From positions 20,012,642 to 20,076,641 of the forward strand of contig CP154954.1 in assembly GCA_039621445.1 (NCBI GenBank): a DNA stretch of 64,000 nucleotides, in the 5' to 3' direction. This stretch comes from Euglena gracilis. Lineage: Eukaryota. Position numbers and translations under genes: made by a program. Of the stretch, positions 476 to 60,456 are shown piece by piece (position 1 is the first letter of the stretch; every line of letters starts with the position of its first letter). The notes beneath the pieces are model-generated. The model worked only from the letters and a program-made list of their open reading frames with translations, ran no database searches and had not been told where the DNA came from.

Positions 476-9621
<9,146 letters not shown>

Positions 9622-29592: not shown

Positions 29593-29722
29593 CACAACCC
29601 CCCCCGTTGTGCTACTTGGGCACCCGAACTGGAGGTCCAGGGGGGGGGTGTTATTTGGGGGGGGGGTGTTTTTCGGGAACCACTCCCTGAACAGGTTCTT
29701 CCCAAACAATGTCTGATATCAG

Positions 29723-40080: not shown

Positions 40081-40236
40081 CAGGGGTTTTTTTAAGACTG
40101 GGCACCCCCCACCCACCCCCCCCCTGGGGGGGGGGGTCCCGGGGGACCCACAAAAAAACGGGGGGGGGGCTCGGCCGGACCCACCCACCCTCCCCCCCCC
40201 TCCCCCCCGGGGGGTCCACGACTAAAAAAACCCCTG
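40081..40236. mobile_element. hAT-like MITE
   Basis: CAGGGGTTTTTT...AAAAAACCCCTG; perfect TSD GTCAGGCC. Confidence 0.9.
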
Positions 40237-40533
40237 GTCAGGCCCCCAGCTTTGGGGGGGTTGGACCAGGAGGCACCCAAAAGAAAACTCCGAAGGCGCC
40301 GAAGGAAAAATTTGACCTCAACATCGGCAACATCGGCGACCCCGGAAATACGGGAAAGCCTGGTGGGGGGGGGGGTCAGACCCCCCGACTACCACCCATA
40401 GGGTTGCAGGGATTCCCGTACAGCCCTCCCTTGTCGGGGTTGTCGGACCCAAACAAGAAATGCAAATTGCCAAGCCGGCCAAGGGGAAAGGAAGTGAAAG
40501 TTTCTCAACCCAGTTGGCGAAAAGACTGCCCAT

Positions 40534-40910
40534 CAGGCTTTTGCTTAAGGACCCCGGCGGGGGGGGGGGGGTACTGGCTAGCCAATCGGCTGGACACTGG
40601 AAAAAATGGACTAGCTAGACCCCTCCCCCCCCGGGGGGGGGGGTCTCGGGGGTCCCCCCAACTGGAAAAAAAATTTCTGCGCGCCGAGGTGGAAATGAGG
40701 TTTTTAATAGGTTTTTGGCTGATCTTGTTCCAAAAATTCCCAAAAATGGCCAAAAACGGGCATTTTTGGCCATTTTTGGGGGTCCCAAGAAAAATTCCGG
40801 CACTTCACGCCGGTCACTGGAAAAAAAATTTCCACTAGCTAGCTAGCTAGCTAGCCCTGCCAGCAGACCCCCTGGGGGGGGGGGACTGCAATCCCTTAAG
40901 CAGAACCCTG
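40534..40910. mobile_element. hAT-like MITE
   Basis: CAGGCTTTTGCTTAAGG...CCTTAAGCAGAACCCTG; perfect TSD CTGCCCAT; relatives at ~3600-3767, ~38260-38670, ~45790 and ~51400-51620. Confidence 0.9.
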
Positions 40911-41978
40911 CTGCCCATAGCTTCAGTTTGCAATCGGAATGTGGTTTTCAACATGTCACTCATTTTGAAATCATCCAAAGGTTGCCGGTGGAAAGGAAAA
41001 GAATGTTCTCATGTTGCCCATAAAGGTCTATGCATTTTGCAAATGTGAAGAACCAGGAGGATGGGGCTAATCATGTTGCTGCCGTTGGAATGTTGAATCG
41101 AATGCAAACTTTGTCCAGAAGTTGCAATTTGTGTATCCCCCGGGACAATCTTGCAGGGCTAGCACGTGGAAAAAATTTTCCTGTGACCAGCGCGAAGCAC
41201 CGAAATATTAAAAAAAAAAAATAAGGTAAAAGATAAAATTTCAGGACCCAAAACTGGCCAAAAATGCCCATTTTTGGCCCATTTTGGAACTTTTTTGGAA
41301 CAAAGTTAGCAAAATTTCCAATTGGGGGGGGGGGCAAACCTGGGGGGGGAGAAAATTTCTCAGACTGCAGAAATAAGCATTTTGTTAACCAAAAAGTGCC
41401 AAAAATGCCAAAATATTGACAAGATTTTTTGTCTCGGGGGGGAAAGAGGGCCAAAACGAGGAATATCAAAATATCCTCATCAAAATATTTATCCAGGAAA
41501 AAAACTCAAAAAAACACAAAAAACACAAATTTTGTCAAATTGAAAAACGAAAAAAAACGCGGTCGTTAGACAAGAGGGGTGGACCCCAGGCAGTCTTCTT
41601 TGACCCCCCCCATGCCCATTGACCAGACTGGGATCGGGAGAGTCTCCGACGTGTGACTTGGGGCTGCCACTCGATGTGTCGTTCTCCCTCTCCACAGTGT
41701 CGTTCTCTTTCTCTCGCGAAGCACAGAAAGAAGACAAAAACACTTGCTTTATGACTTGCGAGGAGAAAACATACAACAAACAAATTTTTTGGATGGAAAA
41801 TTTTTAAAAAAAACTTGCCGATGCACACCGATGCACAAGCCCTTTGATTTTGAGAAAGATGAGGAGAAAAGCAATGCCGAAATCTGGAAAATGCCCCCAC
41901 CTATTAACTCAAATGCCTCAAAAATGTTTGGAGATGATACCTCCCCCCGTCTAAGGATCAGAAAAGATGGGTAAGAAC

Positions 41979-42251
41979 CAGGCTTCTTTTTAAGACCCCC
42001 GGGGGGGGGGGGAGGGGGAGGGTCCCCCCACCCACCCAGGGTGGCGCGGGCCCCCCCCCCCGGGGGGGCGGGGACCCCCCCCCAAAATCGGGCCCGTTAA
42101 AAGCAATTTTCAAAATTTTTCGGCGCTTTGCGCCGAAAAGGTATACCCAGCGCCTCCGGCGCGGGACCCCCCCCCCGGGGGGGGGTCCGGCCCGGACCCA
42201 CCAACCCCCCCTCCCCCCAGGGGGGAGTCTGCTGACTCAAAAAGAAGCCTG
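41979..42251. mobile_element. hAT-like MITE
   Basis: CAGGCTTCTTTT...AAAAGAAGCCTG; perfect TSD GTAAGAAC. Confidence 0.9.
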
Positions 42252-43466
42252 GTAAGAACAAGGGGGTGGTGCTTAATTTGCCAAAACATGGGTAAGAAAC
42301 AGCGGGGGGGGGGGTGCTTAGACAAAGGGGAAAATGATTTGGCTCCCAAGAAAAATCCGTCACTTTGCGCCAAAGAAAAATCCACCTTATTTTGGATACC
42401 GGGGGGGAAAAAATCTGACCGGGAACAATTGCCGACGAGAAAAAATTCTGCCGGGAAAAATATTGGACGAATCCTTAAAATGCCGGGAAAAATCCTGAAC
42501 GCTCGCTGAAACCAGGTGGGAAAAAATATTGGACAGCTAAAAAAAAAACCGCAAAGGTTTTTCGCCGACCAGAATGAGAAAGCATGGCTGCGCTTGGTAA
42601 AAACCAAAAAAAAGTACATTCCGCTGGGGTAGTAAAACCGCCGTGTTGACAGACACGAAACGGTTTCTTGTGCACAACTTATACACAGGGTCTCTTTGGG
42701 GCGGAGTGCAACACCGATTCCCCAGAGGAAGAAATATTCCTGTTGCAAATCGGCACGCAGCGCCGAAGATTTTTTTGGGGGGGTCATTCACTGGAGGAAA
42801 TTGGACTTTCCTTAAATCTGCCGGGAAAAATCCTGGACGGATCCTTAAAAAGGTGGGAAAAATCCTGGACAAAATTTCGTCCAGAATTTTTCCCACAACA
42901 TTTTTTCCCGCACAAGTTTCCCCCCCCCCCCGGTATACAGTGTATAGGCATGTGTCCAGGAATGTACAGGCATTTATCTGTGGTGACCCCTGACATGCAA
43001 CCCCTGACCAGGGGGTGGTCGTATTGGTCGTATTCCCAAATGCCAAAAAAATCCGACTTTCCAAGGCCACCAACAACCCCTGACCACGAGGGGGGGGGGT
43101 CGTGCACACCCCCTGACGTGCAACCCCCGAATGGGTGGCAGTCGGGGAACACAGGTGGTCGGGGGCAAGTGGTGGGGGCGGGTGACGTAATGCCATCCTA
43201 TCCTTCAAAATCTGCTGGTGATGGAGCAGTGCAAGGACGTTGTGCTGATTGGCAAACCGCATCAAACCACCGTCATCGGCAACGGTGCGGGCAGCCGATG
43301 CGACGTGGCAAAGCCCTCAGACGCATCGGTCCATGCGCTGCATCATACGCATCGCAAGCCAACCAAGGCAGTGCCATACGTTGCCGGTAAACCCAGCCAG
43401 GGCTGCCGAGATGAACAACAGTCCTAAATGCACACTCCTCTATCGCAACAGTGAATGGGTTTGCAG

Positions 43467-43642
43467 CAGGGGTTTTTTAAGGCCGGGGGGAGGGGGTTCC
43501 CCCCCCCCACCCACCCACCCCCTGGGGGTCCCGGGGGGACCCACAAAAAATCGCGAAAAGTGCTGAAATAGTATATCCCAACAGACCCACCCACCCTGCC
43601 CCCCCTCCCCCCCCCGGGGGTCCACGACTAAAAAGATCCCTG
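43467..43642. mobile_element. hAT-like MITE
   Basis: CAGGGGTTTTTTAA...TAAAAAGATCCCTG; perfect TSD GTTTGCAG. Confidence 0.9.
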
Positions 43643-44609
43643 GTTTGCAGCCTCCCATGCAATTATACCCAGCCTATTTGTTTTGGGCAGCACCTCCCCT
43701 CCTTGTGGCCGCCAAGAGCGGAAAATCCCCTGAGAAAAATGTTTCTTTGGTGTATACTTTCCTCATCCACTTCTGCCATTGACAAGGCAGTGATTGGAAA
43801 AGGTAAAAAACCTGCAAGGTCTTGGTCTGGATCATTTTGAGGTGCTTCTACCAACTTTGAACAATTGTGAATTGCTGGCCAGAATCCCACTTAGGAATTC
43901 ACTTGACTTTACGCTAAAGAATTGAGAAACCCCACTGGGAGATTCTGGTTTGCCTCCCCTGTGACAAAAGAGCAGCAATCACCCCCCAAAAAAGTCCCCC
44001 CCAAAAAAACCCCTGGGCCAATCGAGCAAAATTCCAAAAATAAGACCCCCCATGAATATTTCGCCCCCCCCCCTCCTGACAGGTGAAACGTTTGCCCGAA
44101 AAATTACCAAAAACCTCAATTTCATGCACAAAATTATGAAGTTTTAAAATTGTCAGATTTTTGAAGTGCAAAAAAGCATAGGAAGTTTCAACATGTATCA
44201 ATTTACAAATGGCGCGAAGCGCTGGTGGAAAAATTTTACTGATTTGGGGAACTTCATAAAAGATGCTTTTTTTTTCATGTCCGGGTCTGTCAAGAAAAAA
44301 ATCAGAAATAAACCCCCCCAAAAATAAGACCCTGGAGGTTTCCAGCAACGGACCCCAAAACAAGCTGTGAGCAATTCCAATCTTTCATTTGGGGTGATAT
44401 TTTCCTTTAAAAAACCATGCAATGGAAAAATGCCAGTCAACAAAGACGGAGGCAGGGGGGCAGGTTCCCAATGAGTCCGAGCCAGAGGGGAAAAATCGAC
44501 ATTTATTGACCCAACAGCGACACAAGAGTCAAAACTTTCCTTGTATTTATCAGAAGCCAGGATGCTTTACAATTTGTCCCACCGTGGAAAATGAATCATT
44601 GAAAAAAAA

Positions 44610-45330
44610 TTCAAAATTTTCCGAAGAATGATTGAAAGGCAGGGTAGTAGGTAGGAGATCGTTTCCCAGAGCAGGTCAGCAAGTGCAAAGCATGGAGGAC
44701 ACGCGGGGAGGACATTGCGCGGTGTTCAAACCCTGGCCCAAAAAAAAATATGTCTGTGCAGCCCTGCACACCACCAACACTGCCAGCATCACCCCAAATG
44801 GAACGTACCAGGAGGTGGACAGCCGCCACCCCCAGGCAATGCCGTTTGCCAATGCCAAGGGGCACTCTATTGGGTCACGTCACCTCTTCCAAAAACCACT
44901 CAACTCCAGGGTTCAATGTGAGGGCAGGTGGGGGTCCTGGACCCCCCCCCTCTCTCAGGAGGGGTGACCACCACCCTCCCCCGAACACCCTCCTTACCCC
45001 GAACCCGACTCCTGTGGTGGAATGAGGGGAGAAAGGGCAGGGAATTTCTGAAAGAAAAATTCAAATTTTCCGAGAATGAGTTGAAAGGCAGGGTAGTGGT
45101 AGAGATCGTTCCCAGAGCAGGTCAGCAAGTGCCAAAGCATGGGAAAGCGGGGGAGACATTGCGCGGGTTTGTTCAAAACCCGGGCCCAAAAAAAATATGT
45201 CTGTGCAGCCCGCACCCCACCAACAACACTGCCAGACACCCCAAATGGAACGTACCAGGAGTGGACAGCCGCCACCCCCCAGGGGCATGCCGTTTGCCAA
45301 TGCCAAGGGGCACTCTATTGGGTCACGTCA
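44610..45330. repeat. Diverged direct duplication of ~270 bp (44610-44883 and 45060-45332)
   Basis: Colinear sequence from TTCAAAATTTTCCGA to GGGTCACGTCAC. Confidence 0.85.
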
Positions 45331-45374
45331 CTACAGCGCAATCCTAGCGGTGGGGGGGGGGGCAGTGCCTGCCC

Positions 45375-48300
45375 GAGAGGCATGGGCCGTCTGCATGTCG
45401 ATGAATCGGCTCAGGGCCTCCTCGAGGGCCGTGATGCGCGAGTCCACCACGGCCTGGAACCGTCGCTCCGCCGCCCCCACACGGGCCTGGAGCTTGTCAA
45501 ACATCACACCCCTGGGCCGTGTCGGCGGGAGTCAGCGGAAAAGCAACAACCTGTTCGCTTCGAGGGGGGGGGGGCGGCCATATTATGCCATGAATATGAA
45601 ACCCTTGAAATTTCCCAATTTGTATGTCTGGGTTTATTTGCGACGTTTCTGGAGAATTTGTCCTGGCCCTGGGAAAAATCCTAAAGCGGGCGCCTGCAGG
45701 GCTCCCAGTCTGGTCACCGCGGGGGTTGAGGTGAAAACTCCTCCGGTGCCGAAGGCACTGAAAATTCAGCGGACCTGGAAAAGGCGGGAAGCAGGCTTTT
45801 GCTTGAAAACCCCGTGGTACTCCACTAGCGAGCCATTTTGCTAGAAAAAGCCAATATCCAGGACCGCCCAGGGGGGGGGGGGGCAGGGTAACGCCAACTG
45901 GACAAAAAAGTTTTCCTCTGGCGCTGTGCACTGAGGTGAAAATCAGGTTTTTAATGGTTGGGAAAATGCTGTTGGCCAGGGCTCAGGAGGTGTCCCTGGC
46001 TCGCAACCGAAAACAGGCAAGAAAGCCAGATCCAGCTGGGTTGGATTTTGCAAGCCAGGTTTTTGGAGTGAAACCAAAACAAATCAAAAGGGGCCATCCT
46101 TTGGGAATTTTCGACCTTTTTCACGGTGTACCATTGCGGGGGGGTCACACCTTTCGGAGAGGCTTTGCTGCGATAACTTTCTTTCACTCGACTCCGGGGG
46201 GGGGGGGGGTCCGCAGCCTGATTGGGAACTGCTGGCTGGAAAAAAAGTGCTGGCTGGCTGGACGGTTGTTGTTGGGTCCCAGGTTGGGTCCCCTGCGTCA
46301 AACTCACCATTTACCATGCGCATATGAAGCATGGTCCCAAAAAGAGCTTGTACTCGGAACTGCACAGCCCAGAGCATGCCCTCAACGGTGGCCTCCAGCA
46401 CCCCCAAGCTTCCCTCCAGCTTGTGCCAGCTGTTGTGAGCAGGGCGGTCCACACAACGCATGAATCTCGGTGGAGGGGGGTGGGGGAAGGGTTCGATATA
46501 AAGAGAGGAGGGGGGGGTCTGCGGGCCAGGGGGGGGGGGGTGGGGGGACACCCCCCCACCTAAACCACGTACACCCTCCTTATATCGAACCCTGGGTGGG
46601 GGGACCCACCTTTCCGTAACTAGGGGGGTGGGGGGTTGGGGGAACCCCCCTCCTACCTCCAGTTTTCGGTCGCCGAAAATTTCGGCCATTTTTTGGGGTC
46701 AAAAATTCAATTCTTCGGCCTCCGAGGAGGCTCCGGGGAGGCTCCCCATGCGGCCCCCCTGGGGGCGCTCCGCGGTGGCAATGCGCTCCAGCAGGTGGCG
46801 GTTCTCCTCCGCCAGCGCCCCGGAGTTCAGCCGCTCGAGGGCCGCGAGGCGGTGGTCGAGGTCCGCCTCCAGCGTGGCGTGGAGGCGGTGCTCCAGGTGG
46901 TGGATCCGCCGCACACCGCTTTGCTCCCTTGGCGCACCAACCTCCCGGGCAGGGTTCGATATAGGCAGGAGGGGGGGTCAGACCAGACTTTCATTTAGTG
47001 CGCCGCGGCGAAGTTTGCCGCGGCGCAAAAAAAAATTTGAGCCGCAGTTACAAAATTTCCGGTGCCGCGGCGCAGAAAATTTTCTTTCCGCAGTGCACTA
47101 AATGAAAGTCTGGGTCGGACCCCCTGCAGTCTGCAGGGTTTCTCACAAATTCATGCTAGGGGCCCTCAATTCTGATTTGTGAATATTCGTGGCACGAATT
47201 GGTGGGAACCCTGCAGTGTGCAAGGGGGGGGATATCCCCAACTCCTGCACAGTGGCGCGGTCAGGGTGACTGAAATTCGGCCCGGAGCGAAGCACCGGGC
47301 CGAAAAAGTTTGCCCCCAAAATCGGCCAAATCTGCCATTTGGGGCACATTTTGGGGCAAAAGAATCGCCAAAAATACCAAAAAATTTTCTGCGGAAAGTG
47401 CCGGCAGAAAAAAAAATGACCTTTGGGGGGAGGGGTCGGGTATGCCCCCCCCGGGGTCGGCAGGCCTTTTTTAAGGCGTCTAAAAAAATCCTTAACCCGC
47501 CTCAAAATGCGCCTTAAATTTTTTTTGCCAAATTACCTGAAATTGCCTTAAAGTGCCTCGAAAATTGGGGGGTTGGGGAATTTTCTTCAACCAAGCAAAA
47601 ATGAAATGCGCAGAATCTCAGGAAAAAATGGTTTCTGGCATCGCTGGATCATTGCCCATCTAACCAAATCTCCAAAAAATGCATTTTTTTGACTTTTTTT
47701 TTTCGATTTTGGACCACATGCAAAATCGAAACCGTTGGTTCGATGCCGGGACAGCCCTTCAACTGCCCTGGGAAATAACGTCTTAAAAAGCCTTAAAATG
47801 CCTTAAAAGCCTTTTTTCTATTAAAAAAAAATGCCTTAATATGCCTCAACATTTGGGGAAAAAATAGCCTGAAAAATAACAATAATGATCCCTGGTGGTT
47901 TTTGGACCCCCCTTCTGGTCCAGGAGGGAGGGGGTGGAGGAACACCCCCCTCTGACCCGTACACCGTCCATGTATCAAACCCTGGGGTGAGGTTTGTTTT
48001 GAGATCAATAGAGCAACCCCCCAGAAAACTTTCAAATAACAACATGTTGTCCACGTTTGAGCCCTTTCTGCCAAAAGAATTTGTTGAGTCGCACCAATGT
48101 TTTTTCCAGCTCCCGACTGCACTGGGCTGGCCAAAAACTTTATTCCAACGGATCCTGGAGGGGGGGTCGGTAGGTAGCCTGGCTGGGAGCTGCTGACTGG
48201 GAAAAAAAAGGTGCTGGGCTGGACCCTGTGGTCTCCGAATATAAGAAAACCCCTCGCTGTCGCTCTGAGGTAAAAAAAAAAAGCCCAGGGAAAAAATTGG

Positions 48301-48925
48301 ACGGTTTTTCAAGGACATGAAAACTTTGGATGTTCATGGGACAAAAGCAGGAATTATGACTGTCAAATTGAACTGAAAATCAAATCAGGAGGTACCAACA
48401 CAAACATATGAATTTTCAGGCCTCGAAATTAGGAATCACCTCCAAATTGGCACCATTTTGTCAAAATGATGGAGAAAATGGGGAAAAATTTTTGGTGAAA
48501 ATGTGGTGAGTTTTGGAGGCCACAACTGAAAATACGGGGGGGGGGAGGTGGCGGAATTTTCCTTTGCCAATTTGTTCACCCCAATTTTGTGCGCCTCTGA
48601 TTTCCTCCCTGCAGGGGGGCTCCGAGGGACTCAAATAAGGGGGGACAATTTACGAACAAAAAACTGAAAATCGCAAAATCAGAAAGTCGGTGAAACAAAA
48701 AGAAAAACCCCTGCGGGGGGGGGGGGTTCGCATTTGACCCCTGAAGGGGGGTCAGTTGCAGGGCTGTATGGGAAGGCCGGGTGGGGGGCGGTTGACCCCC
48801 CCACCCACAGGGTTGCGGGGATTCCCATACAGCCCGGGTCAGGCCTTTTGGGCAAACCACGAAGCAAAGGTGTGGTCCGTTGCCGGGAGACCCGCTCCTC
48901 CTGCTGCACCTCCGTCAACATCCGT
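45375..48925 (-). CDS. Internal exons of a coiled-coil protein gene (partial model)
   Basis: Exons ~48924-48872 (DVDGGAAGGAGLPATDH), 46914-46765 (VRRIHHLEHRL...TAER), 46434-46378 (NSWHKLEGSLGVLEATVEG), 45504-45375 (MFDKLQARV...TAHAS), joined in frame by three stem-forming non-conventional introns; 5' and 3' exons not resolved. Confidence 0.7.
46984..47112. mobile_element. hAT-like MITE (same family as 3483-4280)
   Basis: TIR CAGACTTTCATTTAGTGC; TSD GGTCAGAC/GGTCGGAC (7/8). Confidence 0.88.
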
Positions 48926-50020
48926 CCCACCCAGGGAATGTCTCAAGCCCCCCCCCCCCCCGGATTTCTCAAGCCCAACCCAGCCGGCTGAAAAAAGGTC
49001 CTTGCTGGAAAAAAGGTGCTGGCTGGACCGCCCCAGGGGGTGGGGGGGCCGGGGGGGATTCCTACCGGCTCCCAGGCTGGACCTGGAGGGAACCCCCAAA
49101 ACCATCAAAAAAGCCTAAGTCCGGCTGGGTTGGATTCTTTTCAGCCAAAATTTGAGAATTCAAAAAAACAACCAAAACTGGACATCTTTGGCCATTTCGG
49201 ACCCCTTTTTTCAAAAATTTCGGATTTTTCTTTTCGTCCAGCCCGGCTTTGGCAGCTGCGAAAACTTTATTACTGCTCCACCCTGGTGGTCCGCAGTGCG
49301 GCTAGGAGGTGCTGGCTGGGGGAAAAAGCTTGCTGGCTGGATCCCCAGGGGGGGGGGGCGGGATGGAGGGGTCCAGCTTTTGAGATTCCCTGGCCCCACC
49401 TCCTCCTGGATTGGCCACGGGGCTTTGTTGCGACAAAAGGGTCGTCTAACGCTTCCCAAAAATAACCAAAAACCATAATCAACTTTCAATGACCTTGGGA
49501 ACCAATACCCCGCATCAACAGAAAAGAAATCAATTTGAAAAATTGAAGATTTCCATTCATCGGGAATCCAAATACCAATAACGAGCCATTTTTTTTCAAT
49601 TCCACTCAACAAAGTCCCAAATCCAATGAAATGATGCTCCCAATGGTTGATGAGGCTTTGTTCTGGAGTCTCTGGCGGAAAAAAATCCACATGGAATGCA
49701 AGAAAACACAGCATTGAAATTCATTGAGGGACAACAAACCAGAATTTTTTTTCAACCCTACAGGGGAGATTGTGCTATGGGGTGCCTGGACATTCACAGA
49801 TGGGCATGTGTTATTGAAAAAAATAATAGTAACAATAATCGGCCATCCTTTCCATGGAATTTTTTACCGACCCCGGGGGGGGGTCACTCCACTCTTCGGA
49901 AAACCAGTCAGTCACCTTTTTTGGGGGAAACCAGTCAGTCACTACCCCCGGGGGGGGGGGGGGTCGGCCACTCTGGAATCCAAAGGAAATTTGACCAAGA
50001 ACATGAAAGCGCCTTCGGCG

Positions 50021-50281
50021 CAGGGGTTTTTTTTTTAAGACCGGGGGGTCCCCCCCCCCACCCACCCACCCACCCCATGGGGGGGGGGGTCCTGGGGGAC
50101 CCACAAAAAAATGGCCGAAAATCACACAAAGTGCTAAAAATAGCATCCTTCCAAAATTTTTCGGCGCCGAAAAACATATCCACCCCCCTCCGGGGGGACC
50201 CCCCAGGGGGGGCTCGGCTGGACCCACGCACCCCACCCCCCCTCCCCCCTCCCCCGGGGGTCCACGACAAAAAAACCCCTG
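50021..50281. mobile_element. hAT-like MITE
   Basis: CAGGGGTTTTTT...AAAAAACCCCTG; perfect TSD CTTCGGCG. Confidence 0.9.
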
Positions 50282-50503
50282 CTTCGGCGCCGGGTCACTT
50301 TAGTGGTTTTTTGCCGACCCCCCCCCGGGGGTCCGGACCAAAAACCAGTCAGTCACTCTGAAAAAACTAGTCACCCACCCCCCCCGGGGGGGGGGGGGTC
50401 GGCCAGTGACTAAGTGATTGCATAATCCTTTCTTTCGCATGATGGAATTCCCCAAAAATTGGAGAGGAGAGATCACACGGGGAAGAATTCACTCAACACC
50501 AAT

Positions 50504-50726
50504 CAGGCTTCTTTTTAAGACCCCGGGGGGGGGGGGGGCGGGGACCCCCCCAAAATCGGGCCCGTTAAAGGCAATTTTCAAAAAATTTCGGCGCTTCGTG
50601 CCGAAAAGGTATACCCACCGCCTCCGGCGCGGGACCCCCTCCAGGGGGGGGGGGGTCCGGCCCGGACCCACCCACCCACCCCCCCTCCCCCCGGAGGGGG
50701 GGTCTTCTGACTTAAAAAGAAGCCTG
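50504..50726. mobile_element. hAT-like MITE (same family as 41979-42251)
   Basis: CAGGCTTCTTTTTAAG...CTTAAAAAGAAGCCTG; perfect TSD ACACCAAT. Confidence 0.9.
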
Positions 50727-53700
50727 ACACCAATTTGCACAAAAAAATTGGGTTGTGACCGTTGCATTTGCATTGCGAACACAATCCTGTCCTGGTGGAA
50801 TTTCCTTGAGGACGCTTGCAAAGAAGATATTTTCTTGAGATCCCATACACCAAGCCCCTCACCCCCCTCCCCGGGTCAACAACTTTTTCAAAATATCTGT
50901 TGCACAATGGATATTTCCCACACAGGGGTTCATGCCCACGATGCAAAGTATGGAAAGGCCCCGCAGCATGCAAAAAATCATCTGCTGTGACCATGGCCAC
51001 ATCGTGCGTGTCCGCCTTCGGCCCAGAACAGGCCATTTCTGTATGAAACTTCATAATCAACTTCCAGCAAAAAAAAGTTCAGAATTTCAGAGTCCAGCTG
51101 ATGGATTGAGGAACAGCCCGGTCCTGATATTGCCAGCAGCCCCACATGTGCAGCAGCCAGCCAACCCGCTGGCAGTGTGAAATCCTCATGTGTATGCACG
51201 AGGGCACAAGGCTGATACACACCCCGGCTCCAGGGGTCAACCTCTACAAGGGCGTGTTTCCAGGGCTGCCTTGGGCAATTGTAATGGGACTTGACAGTTG
51301 GCTGTTGCAATCAACCGGTGCAAAACTGGACCCCGACATTTGGGCACCTCGAGAGCAGATTTTTGCTGAAGGACCTGGGGGGTCACCGTCTAGACACTAG
51401 AGAAAAAAGCCACTGGCTTGGTCCAGGGGGCTCCCAACTGGATAAAAATTTCGGCCCTGCACGCCACGGTGGAAATGAGGTTTTACAACTGTTTTTGGCT
51501 GATTTCGTTCCCAAAAAAAATACCAAACATGGCCAAAAACGAGCATTGTGGCACGCATCAGGGCCCTCAAAAAAATTCGGCACTTCATGCTGGTCACTGG
51601 CAGGCTATTGCTCAAAGACTCGGGGGGGGGGGAGGTGCACTGGCTCGCCAGTTTGCTTGATAATGGATAAAAGGGACCAGCTTGACCCCCTCCCCAGAGC
51701 AGAACGGGAAAGCCTGGTGGGGGGGGGGGGTGGTCGACCCCCCCCCACCCGGGAGTTGGGGGGGGGGGTGGGTCGACCCCCCCCACCCACCACAGCATTT
51801 TCATCAATTTCGGCCAACGGGGACGTTGGCCGGGGGAAATTTTTGAATTTTTTTTGAAAAACGAACCCAAAATACATGATTTTTTTATGGAAAACCACAT
51901 TTTTCACAAAAAAAATCTCAAAATTTTCAGGTTGAAAATTGGTAGTTTTCAGGAGGGGGTTAAAAAAAAACAAAGCTCAAAAAAATAACAAAATTTTGGC
52001 ACAGTCCAATTTTACTGAGATTTTTTCTCTTGGAATTTTTCTGATTTTCAAAGGCTTTTTTTGCATCAAAAACCGCTCACAAGGTTGGGTTTTGTTTTTG
52101 TATTTTTGGGGGGGTCCCAAAATCGACCCAAAGATTTTGGGGGGGGGTACACAAAAATCAAAATTTTGGGTCTCCATTGACGATGAGAGAAAACCACGGG
52201 AAACAATGGTCAACATCCGCAAAGTCACAAAGGGGCTGTCGCTCAGAGTTGTCCTGAACACTCCCCGTCTGCTTGAAACAGTTTCTGGCGTTTTTTTCTC
52301 ATAGTCAGACCTTCTTAGTTTAGTTAGTACAGTTTTGGATCCTGAAATTTTTTTGGGGCCACAAGGCCTTTCAAAATGCCCCAAAATGCAAATTTTCTGT
52401 TCTAGACATGTAAAAACCCCCCAAACTGAAAATAATAGTCTGGATTCCAACGATCACCCCTTATCAGAATCCACAATTTTGTTGTACTATCCCCCCCGGT
52501 GTATAAACACCGGCCTTGTATAAGCACTGCCCCCCCCCCCCGGTGCGCTTCCATCCTTTTGGACGCGTTGGACAGGAATCCTGCATTGCATGTGGGGGTC
52601 GGTGGTTCGATTCCGGCTGCAGCCCCAGGGATTATTTAAGGCCGCACCCCCGGCGGGGAGGGGGGGTTGGGGTGGGTCCGGCCGGACCCCCCCCGGGGGG
52701 CCCAGAGGGGGGGTGAGATATACTTTTTGGCGCCGCAGGCGCAGAAAATTTTTAAAAGGCTTTTCTTGGCCAAAATCAGACTTTTTCAGGTGGTTAGGGG
52801 TTATGGGTTAAATTTTTCAAAGTGGGGATCCCAAAAATACAAATTTTGGGTGTTGTTGGGAAGGTACCCAAAAAACAAAAGTTTGGGGGGGACCCAAAAC
52901 CCAAAACCCAACCTTGCCGCTCAAAATCAAAATTTTGAGAAAATGTTGATATTTTGGAAGGTGTGAAAAAAATGGGGTTTTGGGGGGACCTCGTGTAAGG
53001 GTCCCAAAATGGGTCCCCAAAAAACACCCAGTGCCGAAGGTGCCGGGAAGAGGTGGTGGGGGGGGGTCGACCCCCCCACCCACCATGCAGGGGGTGGGGG
53101 GGAGGTCGACCCCCCCCCACCCACCACCCTGGCCGCGAGGCCGTTTCCCGTTCTGCCCCCCCGGGGGGGGGGGGGTTGTAAACCCCCCCCCAAAAATAAG
53201 ACCCGGGTCTTATTTTTGGGTCCGTTGCTGGAAACCTCCAGGGGGGGTCTTATTTTTGGGGGGGGTCTTATTTTTGGATTTTTGCTTGACAGACCCGGGC
53301 CCGAAAAAAAAAGTATTTTTTAGGTTCCCAAAAACACTAAAAATTTTCCTTCGGCGCTTCGCGCCATGTGCAAATTTGTGTAAGTTGACATTTAGCATGT
53401 TTTTTAAACTTCAAGAATCTGAAATTTTTTGAAATTTCATCATTTTTGTGTGTGAAATTTGGGTTTTTGGCAATTTCTCAGGGAAAATTTTCACCGTCCC
53501 CGGCGCTTCGCGCCGTCAGGGGGGGTCTTATTTATGGGGGGGGTCTTATTTTTGGGGGGGGTCTTATTTTTGGGGGGGGTCTTATTTTTGGGGGGGGGTT
53601 TATGGGAAGAGGAATGAAGGGGGGAGTCAGACCATTGACCCCCACCACCTGCCTCAATACAAACAGGCTTCCCAAAAAATACAAAAAAAAACACAAAAAA

Positions 53701-54778
53701 ATGCAAGTAGCATGTGGAGAGGACTTGGAGAGGAGCTTTCAGCTCCATCAGGAATTTTTTCATTTGCATAAAAATAAGCATTTTGTTGACCAAAAAATGC
53801 AAAAAAAATGGCAAAGAATTGACAAAATTTTGATCTCATGGGAAATCAGGGCCAAAACGAGGAATTTTTCAAAGTCCAAATTTTTTCCAGCAAAAACCCA
53901 AAAATCGCCAGAAAAAAACGCATTAAGCCACCTGAGGCTATGCGCAGTTTGGATATTTGTATGTGGAATTATTTGAAGTCGGAATGATTTCCCAGCAGAA
54001 GTTGCCAAATTTTGTCAAAATTTTTAAAAATTGGCAAAATTTGGCAAATAAAAAAAAAAAAAAACAAAAAGCACCTGGGTTCCCTTATGCACCGTTCAAG
54101 GAATGGCCGGAACTCATTTCGTCTTTCAGGTTCATGCGGAAAAAATTGCAGAAAGGGAGGAAACTGTGAGGAAATTGCGGGAAACTCGCGGGAAAATTGC
54201 TGAATATTGCAGAAAATTGTGGAAAATCGTGGAAACGGCGGGAAAATTGCGCACATCAATTTCCCCCTGCAAATGTCCCCATGTATTTAGGGACATAAAA
54301 GCATCTGATAGGGTGGGGTGAGAAATATTTTTGCCACTGTGTGTTTAAAAATCACTCTCAAACAAGATCCAATTAAGGCGTCGCTTAGCGACTCCTGGAG
54401 AGAAGTTCCAGCTCGAGGCTGGAAATTTTGCTCAAGCCAGCCCTGTGTGGGAGGCCAAGATGGCCAGCTTGACTGATGCCCACCGCACAACGTTGAATCC
54501 TTCTTGGTTGATAGCACGAATCAAAAACAGGTCATTGCTGTCATTCATGACCCCCCCCCGACCCATGAAACTTAGACCGCAAAAGACAATTTTGCTGAAA
54601 ATCCCGTCTGGGAGAACTGATTGAAAAAAAATCACAGTAAATGCTGAAATATGAAATAAAATCTATTGGCAGGTACGCCACAGGCTGTGTGCAGTAAGAA
54701 GAAATGCAACATGGACCCCCAAAGCAAAAAAAAATGAATGAAATTCTGGCTTTTGGAAGAAGTTCCAGAGACTTATGA

Positions 54779-55032
54779 GGCAGCCTCCAACTAAAGGGAC
54801 CCCCCCCCCGGGGGGCCTTTAATTGGATCAGGGGGAGGCAATTTTTTTTTGTGTTATTGAAGGAATAGGGTTAAGGGTACGACTTAGGGTTAGGATGAGG
54901 CCTAACTTACAGATTAGTGTACAAATTAGGCCGAATTTGTAACCCTGACCTCACTCCATCATTAACGCAAAAAAAATTGCCGCCCCCTGATCCAACTAAA
55001 GGCCCCCCCGGGGGGTCCCTTTGGAGGCTGCC
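54779..55032. mobile_element. MITE with GG...CC ends and 8-bp TSD (Merlin-like)
   Basis: TIR GGCAGCCTCCAA; TSD ACTTATGA; second copy, inverted, at ~57809-58030. Confidence 0.8.
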
Positions 55033-55778
55033 ACTTATGACTAGGTGCATTACTGCTCCAGAGCAGACCACAAAGCGGGAAGAAGTTATAGCTAACCTTA
55101 AAATTTTCCGCCTCCCAGCCAGGAACCTTTCGCCACCCAACCCCGCGACTTTTCCATACATTTTTGCACCTTGACCTGGTTTACTTTGGCATTGATCCCC
55201 GTCATTTCCGCCACATCTGGCCGTCACTCCCGGGACCCTTGGCAGTTGAAAATGGGGCACACCTTAAAGGCACTGGTGCTGCAATTCATGGGGGGGGCCC
55301 CACTCCGGTTCTCCAAAAATGGTCAAAAATCACGAAAATGCTGAAAATAGCACCCCTTTCAAAAATTTTCAGCGCCTTTATTGCCGACAAGCACATCCCA
55401 CCTCCCCCCTCGGGGGGGGGGGCTGGGCCAGACCCACCCACCCCGCCGGCGGTCCAAGGCTTTAAAAAAAAACCCTGGCATTCAGCAAATTGTGGTCACT
55501 CTCAACTAAGGTTGGACGAATACTGTTCGTTCAACCTCGTGGACGAATAAAACCGATTAATCTCCCCTATCCGACGAATAGTCGACTATTTTTCACCCTT
55601 GGAGTTTTCTCTGCTCCATCCCACTCTGTAAATAATACAATAAAAATGGTGAATAGATATATTCGTTAAATTCTATACCAGGTCGTATAACATTCATCAT
55701 TTACATGAAAACCTATTTTCTGGGCCCGACGCCTGTCTTGAAATTCTACTGACATTGACGGATTTCAGGCTGAAATTG

Positions 55779-55990
55779 TTTATGTCAGTCGATTTCCGTT
55801 CAGGCGCCCGTTGATGTCGGTCGATTTCCATTCAGGCACCCGTTTATGTCAGTTGATTTCCATTCAGGCACCCGTTTATGTCAGCCGATTTCCATTCAGG
55901 CGCCCGTTTATGTCAGTCGATTTCCATTCAGGCACCCGTTTATGTCGGTCGATTTCCATTCAGGCGCCCGTTTATGTCAGTCGATTTCCG
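55779..55990. repeat. 32-bp minisatellite (~6.5 units); second array at ~56630-56770
   Basis: Unit TTTATGTCAGTCGATTTCCATTCAGGC(A/G)CCCG, inside an element bounded by AACCTATTTTCTGGGCCCGACGCCTGTCTTG inverted repeats. Confidence 0.9.
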
Positions 55991-56867
55991 AAATCTGTTG
56001 CTGGTCAGATTGGGAATTTTTTAGTGACTTTTTGGACATTTTGGATTTCCCTTTTTTTCGACATTTTTGGTCCTATGGGGTTGTGGAGGCGTTATGGACC
56101 AGACAAAAACCAAATTTTGTGGTCAGGTGACAGCTGGCTGAACTTTGGATGGAACAGACGGAAGGACGGAACTTAAGATTATCATTTTCTGGAACTTCAG
56201 AAAAAGCCTGAACCAGTTGTCATCACTGGTCATCTGAAAGAAAAGCTTTCGGGTGAGGAGTGATTTGGCAATGCTAAACCTATTTTCTGGGCTCGACGCC
56301 TGTATTGCAATTCTATTCTATTGCAAGGCTGTGTTCATAGCAACATGGCTTTGGTCAAAATCTGTGTTTCTAAAAAAACGCAGACTCTGACCTGAGTCTG
56401 TGTTTCGAAACGCTGAGTCTGTTTCTGCATTTCGAAACGCAGACTCAGGTCAGAGTCTGTGTTTAAGACACAATTCTTCATAGAGATTGTTTCTTTCAAA
56501 ATGGAAGAAAAAAGCATTCCGAAAAAAAAGGAGACAAAAGGTTGGTCGACATTAACGGATTTCAGGCTGAAACTTACAATGTCCCAAAACGGAACAAAAA
56601 GGACAAAAATTCTACTGACATTGACGGATTTCAGGCGCCCGTTTATGTCATTCGATTTCCGTTCAGGCGCCCGTTTATGTCAATCAATTTCCATTCAGGC
56701 GCCCGTTTATGTCAGTCGATTTCCATTCAGGCGCCGTTTATGACAGTCGATTTCCATTCAGGCGCCCGTTAATGGGCCAAAAAACCCTTTTTTGACCATT
56801 TCCGTCTAGGCGGTTCGGTCGAATGAATATCAAGACAGGCGTCGGGCCCAGACAAAATAGGTTTTAG

Positions 56868-56971
56868 AAAAATCGACCGACACTAACAGATTCAGCAGGG
56901 GCGCCGGGCGCGAGCGAGCGAAGCGAGCCGCCCGGCGCCCCTGCTGAATCTGTTAGTGTCGGTCGATTTTT
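56868..56971. repeat. Perfect 43-bp-stem inverted repeat
   Basis: AAAAATCGACCGACACTAACAGATTCAGCAGGGGCGCCGGGCG, 18-nt loop, exact reverse complement. Confidence 0.95.
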
Positions 56972-57763
56972 TGTGTAATAATATACACTAAAATAGGTAT
57001 ATTAATATGTATTGTGGTCATGTACCTGCTTATCCTTTTCGACCAGATACCTTTATTATTAGTTGATCTATAACAAAATATCAGTGTTATAATAAAATAG
57101 GTAAAATAGGTATAGGTATAGATCCATCATTTATTACCCATTTTATTATATACATTAACTAATAATTATTTTATACAAAAATCGACTGCCACTGGGGTGA
57201 AAGGGTGCATGCCCCTAGCAGGCACAACCCCGGGGGGGGGTCCAGGGGGGGCCCAGAAAATTTTCATTGAAAATGGCCTTTTTCGGGCCCCCGGCGCCTT
57301 TGGCACCGGACCCCCCAAAAACCCGACCCCCCCCCCCGGCGGTGGGGGTTCGGATGGGGTGCTCTTGGGTGCCCGCCCCTCCGTGGGGTAGGCACCCGAC
57401 TGAAGGAAAAAAAAGCCTGCCCCCCCCCACAAAGTGTCCCCCCCCCCCGGCCACTTTGAGGGGGAGTGAGGGTATGTGTGCACTTTTCTTTTCTTTTTGA
57501 GGACTGTCTTGAAAACCGTTTATTTGGAACGGCGCCCATGCTAGAACCTGTTAATGTCAGTCGATTTGCAAGACAGGCGTCGGGCCCTGGAAATAGGGTT
57601 TAAGTTTTTTATTTAATAATTTTTATACATTAATGAAAATAGAATACCATACATTATTATTAGGACCAATTCTATGGACTTTTATATAACATATGAATTG
57701 TTAAGTTTTGTTACATATAGATATAGATATAGATATAGATATATATATATATGTTTATGTAAT

Positions 57764-57798
<35 letters not shown>

Positions 57799-58601
57799 AT
57801 ATTTTTACGGCAGCCTCCAACTAAAAGGGTCCCCCCAGGGGGCCTTTTAGTTGGAGGTTGCCATAGGCTGCATAAAGGCTGAACTTGTGCACCCAACCCT
57901 AATCTATAAGTTAGGCCGAACCCTGACCCCAACTCTTAACCCTAACCCTATCCCATCAATAACGCAAAAAAAGATTTTGACCCCTGATCCAACTAAAGTC
58001 CCCGGGGGGGCCCTTGAGTTGGAGGCTGCCATACATACATACACACACATATATATTATATATAATATATATAGGGGGGGGGGTGATCCCCGTGTCCCCC
58101 CCCCCCCCGATCCCCCGTGGCCCACACTTGACCCCCCCCCCTGGGGGGTTGCTGTATCCTGGGGGGGGGGGGAAGTGGGGGTCGACCGAGAGCGACCATG
58201 GTCGCTCTCGGTCGCTCTCTGTCGTGGGCCTGTGAATGTCAAAAAGTGTTTAACCGGGCAAATTGCCGCAACGTACAAGCAAAAGGCGTTACACACACAA
58301 GGGATTTTGTTATTTTAGGGCCCTGGAACAGTTGCCTACGCCGCTACATGGCAAAAAAGGTGGAAAAAAATCCCGGTAGGAATCACCCATAGCGACCGAG
58401 AGCGACCATGGTCGACCCCCACTACCCCCCCAAGGCCAGAACCGGGAGCCCCCCCCCCTGACGTTCACAGCTGCGCTATCGCAAACCCAAATCCTTTCAC
58501 TTCTCCTTTCTCCTTTGCATTCCAACTCGCAGCATTCTGGCAGCAACTCGGCCCCAAAGGTCCATGTTCCCCCCGTGTCCCCCCCGGTGTCCTGCCCCAC
58601 C

Positions 58602-58645
<44 letters not shown>

Positions 58646-60283
58646 TACATACATACATATATATACATATATATACACAATTTATATATGTATATATATG
58701 TATATATTTCTTATAATAGGATAATAAACATAATAAAAGTAATGGTCGAATAAAATAGATTATCTTATCAAATAATATATTTTATTTATATCAATACCTT
58801 TGTATTAGTAGGTCTAAATCTATTACCCCCCCCCCCATATTGTCCCACCGACCTCTCCCCAGGAGGCCCGCCGGGACAATATGGGGGGGGACAACATGGG
58901 GGTACCAAAGGAAATTTCATTGACCGAGCCAAAAAAAATGCCCAAAAATGACCTGCAGAACACAGTTTTGAAAAAATGATGCATCTGAAACCCCCCCCCC
59001 CAAAATGCCCCAAACGCCCCCCAAACCCCATTTTTTTTGGCCACTTTGAACACAGTTTTTCAAAAATTTTCGGCGCCGAAAAAATTTGGGCTGGACCCCC
59101 ACGGCTAGCTGGGCTAGCAGCACCCCCCCCCTCGGGGGGGTGCTGCTGCGGCTGGGCTGGGCCCAAATCGGGGCTGGCTGCAGCCGCCCCCTCCCCGGGG
59201 GGGGGGGGTTCGCAAAACCTTAGAGAGATGTATGAATCCAATACATGCTTTATTTGGGCTTCGGGTAGAGGTTTTAGAGGTAATATATAAAAGGTAAATC
59301 TGACATGTATGGCAATTATAAGGTAAATTTGTTAAAATTAAAACATCTTCAAAAAACAAGAACTAAAAAAAAACTTTAAAAAAATCCCTTGTGGCAGCCA
59401 TTTTTTTGCATGTAATTTGGCTTCTGTGCCCCCAAGAATGACCCCTGAATGTTCTGCACCAGTCCAATTTTGTAAGAGGCAAATTCGTTCACGACTATTC
59501 TTTTTGGGCATGAACGATTAATCCTGTTCGGGGGTCCCGAACGAATAATCGATCAATCATCAAAACATTGACCTGGGTATGGTACGGCAACTTCCTGCAA
59601 CTGTGGTCAGCCCTGCTTCGCTTCATTCATTTCAGTTTACCAGTCATTGATTTCGATGCTTGAGCCCTGGAAAGGTCGTTGTTAGCCGGCCCTTCGGCCT
59701 GAGGGCGGGCATTCCTTAGTCAAAAAAACCCTGACCCATAATTTGGATTTGGAAAAGTCCCTTCGGTGGCAAAGGAAAATTTTGACCTAAAAATCGGAGC
59801 CCCCGGAAAGACAGGAAAGCCAGCGGCACCAAAACGCCGCTTTCAGAAAGTGGTGGCGAACGCCGGTTCTGTCGTGAACCCGGCGTCCCGGACACCGGGT
59901 TCACGACAGAACCACGCCTCCCTTCTTGATATAAAGGGGGGTGTTCCCCCCGTGACCCCCCCGTGACCCCCCCCCGTGACCCCCCCCGTGACCCCCCCCG
60001 TGACCCCCCCGTGACCCGAACCACCCCCAAGGTTCCATTGCGTCAAAAAAAAGCTGCCGCGTTGGATTAAAATGCTGATAGTGTTTTCCCAGGCATGCAA
60101 AAGATGTAACACAAGGGATACTTCCATTTTGGGGCCCTCAGACAGCAAAAAAAAAATCATTGGATTGCCTAAAATCAATGGATTTGCCAAAACTCCCAAA
60201 AATTCTGGCACCTTTGTCGGTTTTTGGCCCATCTGGAGCCAAAACCAGTCAGTCACGCCAAAAAAGGCCGTTAGTCACCCTGG

Positions 60284-60456
60284 GTCGGAACTTGAAACAA
60301 GCCTGTCCTTCACAACATCACTGCCTTGGTTGATGACAATGGTCACCTGATGTGCGTTGGACCCGTCCTCCACAGGCGAAAAGCTGACTCCCAGCCCAAT
60401 GAAGTTGGACGTAAATCCAAAGTTGTCACCTGCTACGAAAAATGGGTTCCCTGTTG
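60284..60456 (-). CDS. Possible isolated exon of unknown protein
   Basis: Open frame GNPFFVAGDNFGFTSNFIGLGVSFSPVEDGSNAHQVTIVINQGSDVVKDRLVSSS, flanked by CTGnnnnn| and |nnnCAG. Confidence 0.3.

Follow-up and report, generated by a model that had tools for sequence, protein, structure and literature searches.

A 64,000-nt stretch of Euglena gracilis DNA (the window) carries a set of short elements that begin with CAG, end with CTG and are flanked by 8-bp duplications, and an element of this kind taken together with one copy of its duplication has the anatomy of a euglenid non-conventional intron. We propose that the elements are hAT-like, non-autonomous cut-and-paste MITEs present in very many copies, and that the non-conventional introns are probably old insertions of such elements. 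The elements are good candidates for the source of these introns.

A preliminary description had named eight CAG...CTG MITEs with inverted-repeat ends, six with perfect 8-bp duplications and two at 7/8. All eight were recovered by a scan that required a CAG and a CTG spaced by 60-1500 bp, no fewer than 9/12 terminal inverted-repeat matches and at most one mismatch between the flanking 8-mers (Table 1, marked "named"). The scan returned 11 elements from the window, three of them beyond the eight; one scan match, at 4904-4992, has poly-C flanks and is doubtful. The eight measure 129-798 bp, six of them within 129-377 bp, and the perfect inverted-repeat run at the tips reaches 18 bp. Eleven elements, counted with the AAG-ended one described next, have 11 different 8-mers as duplications, seven perfect and four at 7/8. 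A twelfth element with AAG...CTG ends, 46487-46594, was spotted by eye and then checked, and CAG stands at 23 of the 24 ends of the twelve, the remaining end being AAG. The count lies far above that in shuffled sequence: over 100 third-order Markov shuffles, matches averaged 0.34 per window (maximum 3) and those with a perfect duplication 0.03, and the scan with shifted flanks gave 0-2 elements. A second control relaxed the inverted-repeat rule and covered 1323 CAG...CTG pairs in the window; 11 pairs had 7/8 or 8/8 flank identity in the true register, compared with 0-3 at 7/8 and 0 at 8/8 when the flanks were moved outward by 8-32 bases or the register was slid by 1-3, and the window showed no excess of pairs with 5-6/8 identity. 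Additionally, the element ends at 46984 and 50726 are confirmed by reads and contigs that match to the last element base and then diverge.

Table 1. Elements, lectin-gene exon blocks and introns in the 64,000-nt window.
Feature	Position	Strand	Details
family D element, 798 bp (named)	3483..4280	.	ends CAGACATTCATTTAGTG; duplication AGGGAGAC/AGGCAGAC 7/8
added CAG...CTG element, 441 bp	11174..11614	.	duplication GCGGAGGC/TCGGAGGC 7/8; absent from earlier list
family A MITE, 156 bp (named)	40081..40236	.	14-bp perfect terminal repeat CAGGGGTTTTTTTA; duplication GTCAGGCC 8/8
family C MITE, 377 bp (named)	40534..40910	.	duplication CTGCCCAT 8/8
family B MITE, 273 bp (named)	41979..42251	.	duplication GTAAGAAC 8/8
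family A MITE, 176 bp (named)	43467..43642	.	duplication GTTTGCAG 8/8; nested in lectin-gene intron J9
family E MITE, 108 bp	46487..46594	.	AAG...CTG ends, repeat GGGTTCGATATA; duplication GGTGGGGG 8/8; nested in intron J6
family E element, 1035 bp	46950..47984	.	both family ends; flank duplication absent (2/8)
family D MITE, 129 bp (named)	46984..47112	.	18-bp perfect terminal repeat; duplication GGTCAGAC/GGTCGGAC 7/8; nested in family E element
low-copy CAG...CTG element, 461 bp (added)	48932..49392	.	duplication GTCCCACC/GCCCCACC 7/8; candidate intron J5a
family A MITE, 261 bp (named)	50021..50281	.	duplication CTTCGGCG 8/8; inside a lectin-gene intron
family B MITE, 223 bp (named)	50504..50726	.	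16-bp perfect terminal repeat; duplication ACACCAAT 8/8
L-type (ERGIC-53/VIP36-like) lectin gene, ~20 kb	43320..63748	-	coiled coil and C-terminal membrane anchor
lectin exon blocks, first five	63748-63489, ~60606-60557, 60452-60303, 51259-51124, 51023-~50981	-	colinear with homologues
lectin exon blocks, next six	49705-~49619, 46944-46765, 46434-46376, 45505-45375, 44827-44770, 43392-43320	-	colinear with homologues
non-conventional intron I2, 104 nt	60453..60556	-	AAA-CAG...CTG-GCAAC/A junction; 9-bp stem; flank repeat 4/8
non-conventional intron J3, 100 nt	51024..51123	-	GAC-CGG...CTG-TTCTG/G junction; 9-bp stem; flank repeat 5/8
candidate intron J5b, 1938 nt	46945..48882	-	CAA-CGG...CTG-CCCGG/G junction; flank repeat CCCGGCAA/CCCGGGAG 6/8
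non-conventional intron J6, 330 nt	46435..46764	-	CCC-CAG...CTG-CTCAC/A junction; flank repeat 3/8
non-conventional intron J7, 870 nt	45506..46375	-	GCT-CTG...CAG-GGGTGT/G junction (6-nt spacer); 10-bp stem; flank repeat 2/8
non-conventional intron J8, 547 nt	44828..45374	-	GGG-CAG...CTG-GGGGT/G junction; flank repeat 2/8
non-conventional intron J9, 1377 nt	43393..44769	-	GTG-CAG...CTG-GCTGG/G junction; 9-bp perfect stem CAGGGCTGC/GCAGCCCTG; flank repeat 4/8

BLAST within the window sorts the eight named elements into four families, the number that had been estimated: A (40081, 43467, 50021), B (41979, 50504), C (40534) and D (3483, 46984). A family C fragment is nested in element 3483-4280 at about 3595-3768. 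The tips read CAGGG in families A and E, CAGGC in B and C, and CAGAC in D. The elements are short and non-coding, with terminal inverted repeats and duplications of fixed length that differ from copy to copy, which places them in the MITE class, and no Pfam family was found in the ORFs that overlie them. Each family has 2-3 copies within the 64 kb. Word depth in a DNA run is about 100,000 over element-rich bins versus 20-42 on unique contigs, an uncalibrated value that is not a copy number and that fits a very high copy number of the elements. Duplications of 8 bp are not confined to CAG elements, since two further MITE families in the window, with GG...CC ends, have them too.

In euglenid non-conventional introns, a CAG at positions +4 to +6 is paired with a CTG at positions -8 to -6 (Milanowski, Nomura), and the code tested by Nomura et al. 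in 2025 reads N3-CAG...CTG-N5(6), then a purine, plus a stem next to the motifs (PMC12501133). Specifically, E. gracilis correctly spliced out fully artificial 50-bp inserts that combined CAG/CTG, 3- and 5-nt spacers, a 12-bp stem and a purine as the first base of the following exon, and a 1-nt change of the 5' spacer abolished their splicing (PMC12501133). Because the spacers of the tested code are 3 nt and 5 nt long, the predicted removed unit is an element plus one 8-bp duplication. When the code was applied in the form 5'-N3-CDG ... CH'G-N5-6, then R, element plus duplication conformed in 8/11 cases read on the + strand and in 5/11 on the - strand; those that do not conform carry a pyrimidine at duplication position 6 or an AAG/CTT end. 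The RNA fold of 50489-50741, around a family B element, contains a 17-bp stem that starts from the C of CAG (CAG/CUG) and leaves the flanks unpaired, with a z-score of -5.4. The interpretation put forward in the preliminary description is supported in part: it is right as regards element anatomy and intron geometry, and its seamless 3 + 5 = 8 removal is what the code predicts, but no member of families A-D was identified as an intron in the window.

Published introns can be read against the same register. In E. agilis, 8-nt direct repeats accompany a gapC intron that is strain-specific and of recent gain (PMC4770533), and 84.4% of the introns of this species are described as "slidable" through short direct repeats (PMC12501133). 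One tubulin intron is reported to have "as many as nine positions" (PMC3935182), which is the number that an 8-nt repeat gives. Under our model both junctions are one duplication cut at one place, and their logos should therefore be identical; the published logo has a pyrimidine then a purine at both junctions, and C as the third nucleotide of the downstream exon (PMC3935182). Among the elements, duplication position 8 is C in 6/11, and G at position 1 pooled with C at position 8 reaches 13/22 (p = 0.0008, from 11 sites only). Unlike the intron logo, duplication position 5 is a pyrimidine in only 3/11.

The elements lie in and around a lectin gene that has non-conventional introns of its own. 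Homology fixes six of these, four by a gapless 162-residue alignment to P0004, and all six follow the N3-CAG...CTG-N5(6) geometry, then a purine. The earlier account of host introns as nnn-CAG...CTG-nnnnn with a terminal stem agrees with the published, tested code. Each of the 12 intron ends reads C[A/G/T]GG[G/C], a pattern also seen at the element tips in families A, B, C and E. The 8-mer identity that had been predicted at intron ends is weak in these six, with only 20/48 matching positions, whereas twelve shifted registers gave 13-17 (p about 0.07), and the older lectin introns keep the flank repeat weakly at most. For candidate intron J5b, a conventional GT-AG intron at 46942-49582 is a possible alternative.

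With respect to the lectin gene, four of the eight named elements are nested in its larger introns, three lie 1.1-3.2 kb past the stop codon and one is about 40 kb away, so that exon-interrupting copies number 0/8 in the window. In three RNA runs, 35701-55700 was almost uncovered outside repeat and poly-G pieces, and no splice junction was seen. Three leads connect elements with introns. First, taking out 48927-49395 on the minus strand, with element 48932-49392, joins two ORFs in frame, which makes this element a candidate intron from its sequence. Second, the low-coordinate CAG of the family E element 46950-47984 (CTG on the gene strand) precedes by 5 nt the exon start that homology places at 46944. 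Third, the 5' tip of intron I2, CAGGGTTTGAT, equals the right end of the same element; the common tip is 11 nt long, a length reached by 4/726 background 16-mers. This family E element, which provides the best link to a splice site, has no duplication (2/8).

We propose the following course of events. An element copy would be transcribed inside a pre-mRNA, and its inverted repeats would fold to a stem beginning at CAG/CUG, bringing the two duplication copies side by side. The non-conventional splicing machinery would then cut 3 nt upstream of CAG and 5 nt downstream of CUG, removing the element with exactly one duplication copy and restoring the original exon, the sole extra requirement being a purine at duplication position 6. 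The 3 + 5 spacer rule would in this way be a record of an 8-bp staggered cut. The young copies in this window would have landed in existing introns and intergenic DNA, whereas the lectin gene's own non-conventional introns would be older, with intron-side duplication copies mostly decayed. In a wider form, for which we see about even chances, most Euglena introns (~70% are non-conventional in E. agilis) derive from one hAT-like MITE class, and splicing acts as an RNA-level eraser of insertions. If so, the stem would be a ruler, the 3/5 cuts would be set by the transposase's 8-bp staggered cut, and spliceable insertions would leave no scar. The excised circular RNA would have exactly one duplication copy between CUG and CAG, and "slidable" introns would be insertions with surviving duplications.

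The link to introns may hold for elements of another, possibly undescribed, superfamily with 8-bp duplications, which we regard as somewhat unlikely. Ac/Ds ends read C/TAGGGATGAAA with 8-bp duplications (PMC3260210), and Hermes prefers nTnnnnAn targets (PMC10368747). The elements share with these hAT systems the 8-bp duplications, C/TAG-type tips and, in a small sample, an nTnnnnAn-like target: T occupies duplication position 2 in 6/11 and A position 7 in 6/11, pooled 12/22 (p = 0.0026, 11 sites only). In favour of a different superfamily, the fifth tip base is G in some families only, the GG...CC-ended families also have 8-bp duplications, and the window yielded no transposase from any DNA-transposon family. 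In particular, the cognate hAT transposase with matching terminal repeats that the preliminary description proposed to look for did not appear: the 396 ORFs of at least 80 aa in the 64-kb window include no match at E <= 0.001 to a hAT transposase (BED finger, dimerisation domain).

It is unlikely, in our judgement, that the resemblance is a coincidence, in which ordinary hAT-like MITEs pile up in introns and intergenic DNA and non-conventional introns have another origin, such as double-strand-break repair or conversion of conventional introns, with the CAG/CTG stem and the 3/5 spacing reflecting needs of the machinery only. In favour of coincidence, Milanowski et al. in 2016 explained the 8-nt repeats at the young gapC intron by break repair (PMC4770533), CAG tips with 8-bp duplications are common among hAT elements anywhere (PMC10368747, PMC3260210), no clear repeat is kept at the older lectin introns, and all eight named elements lie outside exons. 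However, chance would then have to account for 8 = 3 + 5, for the C[A]GG[G/C] tips common to elements and introns, for the same pyrimidine-purine logos at both junctions with exon +3 C matching duplication position 8, for young introns with 8-nt repeats, and for the tip common to I2 and family E. That several independent agreements all need chance argues against coincidence. The reverse direction, in which the repeats are copies of excised circular intron RNAs returned to the genome by reverse splicing or reverse transcription, accords with the release of non-conventional introns as full-length circles (PMC11282704) and with reverse-transcriptase ORFs in the window, but is very improbable, since a re-inserted intron would bring its parent's 3 + 5 flanking bases whereas here there are 11 different 8-mers, and every copy is bordered on either side by a flank sequence of its own, as a staggered cut of the target DNA would leave it.

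A MITE-like origin of euglenid non-conventional introns has already been proposed in print (Milanowski et al.; Nomura et al. 2025), and both the general MITE idea and "duplication-like repeats" at these introns are published; Milanowski et al. (2014) wrote that euglenids had as yet yielded no identified transposable element. The 3 + 5 = 8-bp link, the hAT-like assignment and concrete element families were not found in full-text searches of the literature, a result on which the supplementary repeat-length data of Nomura et al. and junction tables of Milanowski et al. may bear. Published accounts, including PMC11282704, describe the origin of non-conventional introns and of the 3/5 spacer rule as unknown. 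Should the 3 + 5 spacing go back to an 8-bp target-site duplication, the spacer rule would have a simple historical cause, which would also explain the one logo at both junctions, the "slidable" majority of introns and the harmless intake of huge numbers of insertions within genes, and would offer concrete element families for knock-in in the existing system.

The elements share with euglenid non-conventional introns the CAG/CTG pairing, the terminal stem, the 3- and 5(6)-nt spacers, the next-exon purine and the junction direct repeats; unlike those introns, they are probably high-copy, have intact 8-bp duplications and lie outside exons, and their spliceability is predicted from the code. They resemble Ac/Ds in 8-bp duplications and, in part, in its C/TAGGG... 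tips (PMC3260210), and Hermes in 8-bp duplications and the nTnnnnAn preference (PMC10368747). They differ from both in that three families have CAGGC or CAGAC tips and in that G at target position 1 and C at position 8 are also favoured. Introners of Micromonas and other algae are likewise MITE-like DNA transposons whose duplication enables exact RNA removal and intron gain on a genome scale (PMC11282704). They rely on the spliceosome, the element supplying one splice site and a 3-nt duplication the other (PMC11282704), whereas for the elements described here we propose a stem-guided, non-GT-AG removal whose register is set by the whole 8-bp duplication. Non-canonical introns with inverted-repeat ends and duplication-like repeats, thought to be MITE-derived, are also described from Fritillaria, Amoebophrya and diplonemids; in the first two, removal is thought to be by an adapted spliceosome, and the diplonemid study offers several possible mechanisms. 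Amoebophrya duplications are 3-5 nt long, and, as these systems are described, the fixed 3/5 ruler is particular to Euglena.

A script scan of the window, which is repeat-rich nuclear DNA of approximately 50% G+C, detected 11 elements that run from CAG to CTG, end in inverted repeats and are bordered by 8-base flanks that match. The scan recovered all eight MITEs with CAG...CTG ends and 8-bp target-site duplications (TSDs) that the preliminary description had listed, with six perfect duplications and two matching at 7/8, and BLAST within the window sorted these eight into families A, B, C and D, in agreement with the earlier count of about four families. Two additional elements, 11174-11614 and 48932-49392, each carry a duplication matching at 7/8, and one scan match in poly-C is a doubtful element. 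A twelfth element, 46487-46594, has a perfect duplication and one end mutated to AAG; BLAST groups it with 46950-47984 as family E, with ends CAGGGTTCGATATA. Positions are collected in the table.

Elements, lectin-gene introns and other features (positions in the window)
Feature	Position	Detail
MITE, family A	40081	past lectin stop codon
MITE, family A	43467	in lectin-gene intron
MITE, family A	50021	in lectin-gene intron
MITE, family B	41979	past lectin stop codon
MITE, family B	50504-50726	in lectin-gene intron
MITE, family C	40534	past lectin stop codon
MITE, family D	3483	far from lectin gene
MITE, family D	46984	in lectin-gene intron
Element, family E	46487-46594	
Element, family E	46950-47984	
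Element	11174-11614	
Element	48932-49392	
GG...CC-ended MITE-like family	54779-55032	ends GGCAG...CTGCC
GG...CC-ended MITE-like family	60701-60929	ends GGTAC...GTACC
Lectin gene	43320-63748	minus strand
Intron I1	~60602-63488	GT-AG, read by eye
Intron I2	60453-60556	non-conventional, fixed
Intron J3	51024-51123	non-conventional, fixed
Candidate intron J5a	48927-49395	
Candidate intron J5b	46945-48882	
Intron J6	46435-46764	non-conventional, fixed
Intron J7	45506-46375	non-conventional, fixed
Intron J8	44828-45374	non-conventional, fixed
Intron J9	43393-44769	non-conventional, fixed
Tandem duplication	~44600-44900, ~45030-45330	few hundred bases
Tandem-repeat array, 32 bp	55778-55989	6.6 copies
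Tandem-repeat array, 32 bp	56630-56774	4.6 copies
Long ORF	16855-19671	938 aa, no Pfam family
Long ORF	21143-23071	no Pfam family
Long ORF	28689-30611	no Pfam family

The elements are not a product of chance. Markov shuffles gave 0.34 matches per window, and among 1323 looser CAG...CTG pairs 11 showed 7-8/8 flank identity at the true register, whereas the control registers (six outward shifts and six slid) gave 0-3 pairs at 7/8 and none at 8/8. The 1323 pairs show no excess at 5-6/8, and the recognisable copies are therefore young. The duplication is exactly 8 bp at 40534, 50504, 11174 and 48932, where neighbouring bases do not extend the repeat. A G precedes the left duplication in 5/11 elements and a C follows the right one in 5/11, so that the repeat there can be read as 9-10 bp. 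Within the duplications (positions numbered 1-8), G is favoured at position 1 and C at position 8 (13/22, p = 0.0008); taken with the outer G/C, this points to a palindromic target preference that extends beyond 8 bp. Additionally, T is favoured at position 2 and A at position 7 (12/22, p = 0.0026), the preference reported for Hermes (PMC10368747). In a DNA run, word depth is near 100,000 over element-rich bins vs 20-42 on unique contigs, a depth that is not a calibrated copy number, and many contigs match until base 50726 and then diverge; very many genomic copies of the elements would fit these data. Metagenome scans with the family B end and the family C core each returned 0 matches.

Overall, the elements are real, young MITEs, and their membership of hAT is probable. 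The cognate hAT transposase named earlier as something to look for was not found in the window, which counts against the intron interpretation: a Pfam search of all 396 stop-to-stop ORFs of at least 80 aa returned no DNA transposase, only reverse transcriptase (3 ORFs), weak GTPase and C1_4 matches and one legume-like lectin. Separate Pfam runs on the ten longest ORFs and a further ten likewise gave no transposase. The three reverse-transcriptase ORFs, noted for the stretch 1-43500, match RVT_1 (best E-values 6.7e-22 and 6e-18).

In E. agilis, 71.8% of introns are non-conventional, and the published code is 5'-N3CDG-/-CH'GN5-6|R (Nomura et al. 2025, PMC12501133). In that work, changing the 5' spacer by 1 nt abolished splicing, wholly artificial 50-bp inserts were spliced correctly given the code features and a 12-bp stem, and 'slidable' introns, from short direct repeats, amounted to 84.4% and were set aside in that analysis. 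CAG...CTG tips with a stem of at least 12 bp and an 8-bp duplication are base for base the published sufficiency requirement, with one added condition, a purine at duplication position 6. The proposed match in geometry between the elements and non-conventional introns is correct, and the published sufficiency experiments strengthen it. In all, 8/11 elements carry the full code on the plus strand and 5/11 on the minus strand, and RNA folding of element 50504-50726 predicts a 17-bp stem starting at the C of CAG with unpaired flanks (z-score -5.4). Under the published rule, with cuts 3 nt before CAG and 5 nt after CTG (the 3/5 rule), removal of N3, element and N5 would delete 8 nt along with the element and restore the target. 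Duplication position 8 corresponds to base three of the downstream exon, at which the published logo shows C. Position 5 is a pyrimidine in only 3/11 elements and is not pyrimidine-rich, which speaks against the interpretation.

Two other MITE-like families, at 54779-55032 and 60701-60929, have perfect terminal repeats (12/12) and perfect 8-bp duplications, ACTTATGA and CAAAAAAG, respectively. In 54779-55032 the CAG lies 2 nt inside the tip, and the 3/5 rule would therefore leave 4 extra bases. For such GG...CC-ended families with 8-bp duplications the rule would not yield scarless removal, and this counts against the intron interpretation. Each CAG...CTG copy is flanked on both sides by a sequence specific to that copy, which argues for DNA transposition and against the re-insertion of excised intron RNA.

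The host of several elements is a lectin gene. Its ORF 63167-63928 (minus strand) has 69 relatives, and tblastn together with a profile from 21 full-length relatives, run against the window, placed exon blocks in colinear order along the minus strand, starting at 63748 and ending at 43320. The gene encodes a lectin of the ERGIC-53/VIP36-like type that also has a coiled coil and a membrane anchor. For profile positions 163-199 (~37), no exon was found between 60303 and 51259; as to a transcript-derived protein, exon 1 matches only the unspliced genomic ORF P0001 and the coiled-coil exon matches nothing. Four of the eight elements lie inside its introns, three lie 1.1-3.2 kb past its stop codon, and none (0/8) interrupts an exon block of this gene. 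A second membrane-anchor exon, now degenerate, forms part of the tandem duplication in the table; it reads SWYVPFGV in the minus-strand ORF 44997-45314 and falls within intron J8. Both 32-bp arrays lie in the large intron of the gene.

Introns were placed by listing frame-keeping splice choices and comparing each product with relatives. Removing four rule-obeying non-conventional introns to join five C-terminal exons gives a gapless 162-residue alignment to the matched sequence P0004, through its last residue. Introns I2 and J3 are fixed by alignments gapless at the junction, in J3 against P0020, vs a one-residue gap beside the junction against P0004. All six fixed introns have the form N3-C[A/G/T]G ... 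C[T/A]G-N5, with N6 instead of N5 in one; each is followed by a purine and has a stem of 5-10 bp. Their motif pairs, CAG-CTG in four, CGG-CTG in one and CTG-CAG in one, are all functional in published work (PMC12501133). The nnn-CAG...CTG-nnnnn geometry ascribed to host introns thus holds in the window at 6/6 homology-fixed introns, these variants included. In addition, 12/12 ends of these introns read C[A/G/T]GG[G/C], resembling the element tips in families A, B, C and E. Against the interpretation, the flank identities of the six introns total 20/48 vs 13-17 at twelve shifted registers, the top of 13 registers but only at p ~0.07. Alongside six or more non-conventional introns, the gene appears to contain at least one conventional GT-AG intron, I1. 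Because a gene in the window has introns of the euglenid non-conventional type, the DNA is taken to be euglenid.

Three leads, none of them settled, link elements to splice sites. First, the copy number of element 48932-49392 is low, with a contig at unique depth spanning its end, and its rule-based removal as J5a joins two ORFs in frame. Second, the terminal CTG of element 46950-47984, whose lack of a duplication counts against the interpretation, lies 5 nt before a homology-defined exon start, a purine; the flank repeat at its candidate donor 48882 is 6/8 (CCCGGCAA/CCCGGGAG), a match that is not independent because the donor was found by repeat search. Between exon 49705-49619 and the exon at 46944, the frame is kept both by J5a plus J5b and by a conventional GT-AG intron, 46942-49582. 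Third, the first 11 bases at the 5' end of I2 equal the right end of element 46950-47984, a link that is suggestive only: 4/726 background CAGG 16-mers share 11 bases with any element end, and 12 intron ends were tested.

For the interval 35701-55700, reads were mapped from three raw RNA runs and from one DNA run. RNA depth was nil over this interval and no splice junction was seen, which counts against the interpretation; the RNA reads fitting only in part (1357/1368, 764/770 and 168/173) consisted largely of repeat fragments and poly-G tails. Just one RNA joint was listed, from 42022 to 50525; it connects two copies of family B and was rejected as a splice. At G-runs inside elements (42001, 46529-46547, 50525-50543), long poly-G tails terminate hundreds of RNA reads, probably a sequencing artefact that inflates RNA depth over elements. 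Among the DNA-run joints listed, none matched an empty site missing the element and 8 bp.

A MITE-like origin of non-conventional introns was proposed by Milanowski et al. 2014 (PMC3935182), who stated that no euglenid transposable element had been identified as of then. In their data most junctions carry direct repeats, the two junctions of an intron both read pyrimidine|purine, base three of the exon is C, and one intron could be placed at nine positions. A strain-specific new gapC intron has eight-nucleotide direct repeats, for which break repair was suggested (Milanowski et al. 2016, PMC4770533), and a 2024 review calls CAG/CTG inverted repeats and the repeats 'TSD-like' (PMC11282704). In the main-text passages and full-text searches covered, we found no link between 3 + 5 and an 8-bp duplication, no hAT name and no element families. 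We propose that the elements generate non-conventional introns, a plausible reading towards which the balance tilts modestly. Transposon-based intron gain aided by target-site duplication is a process of a known kind; the route here would be the non-spliceosomal euglenid code.
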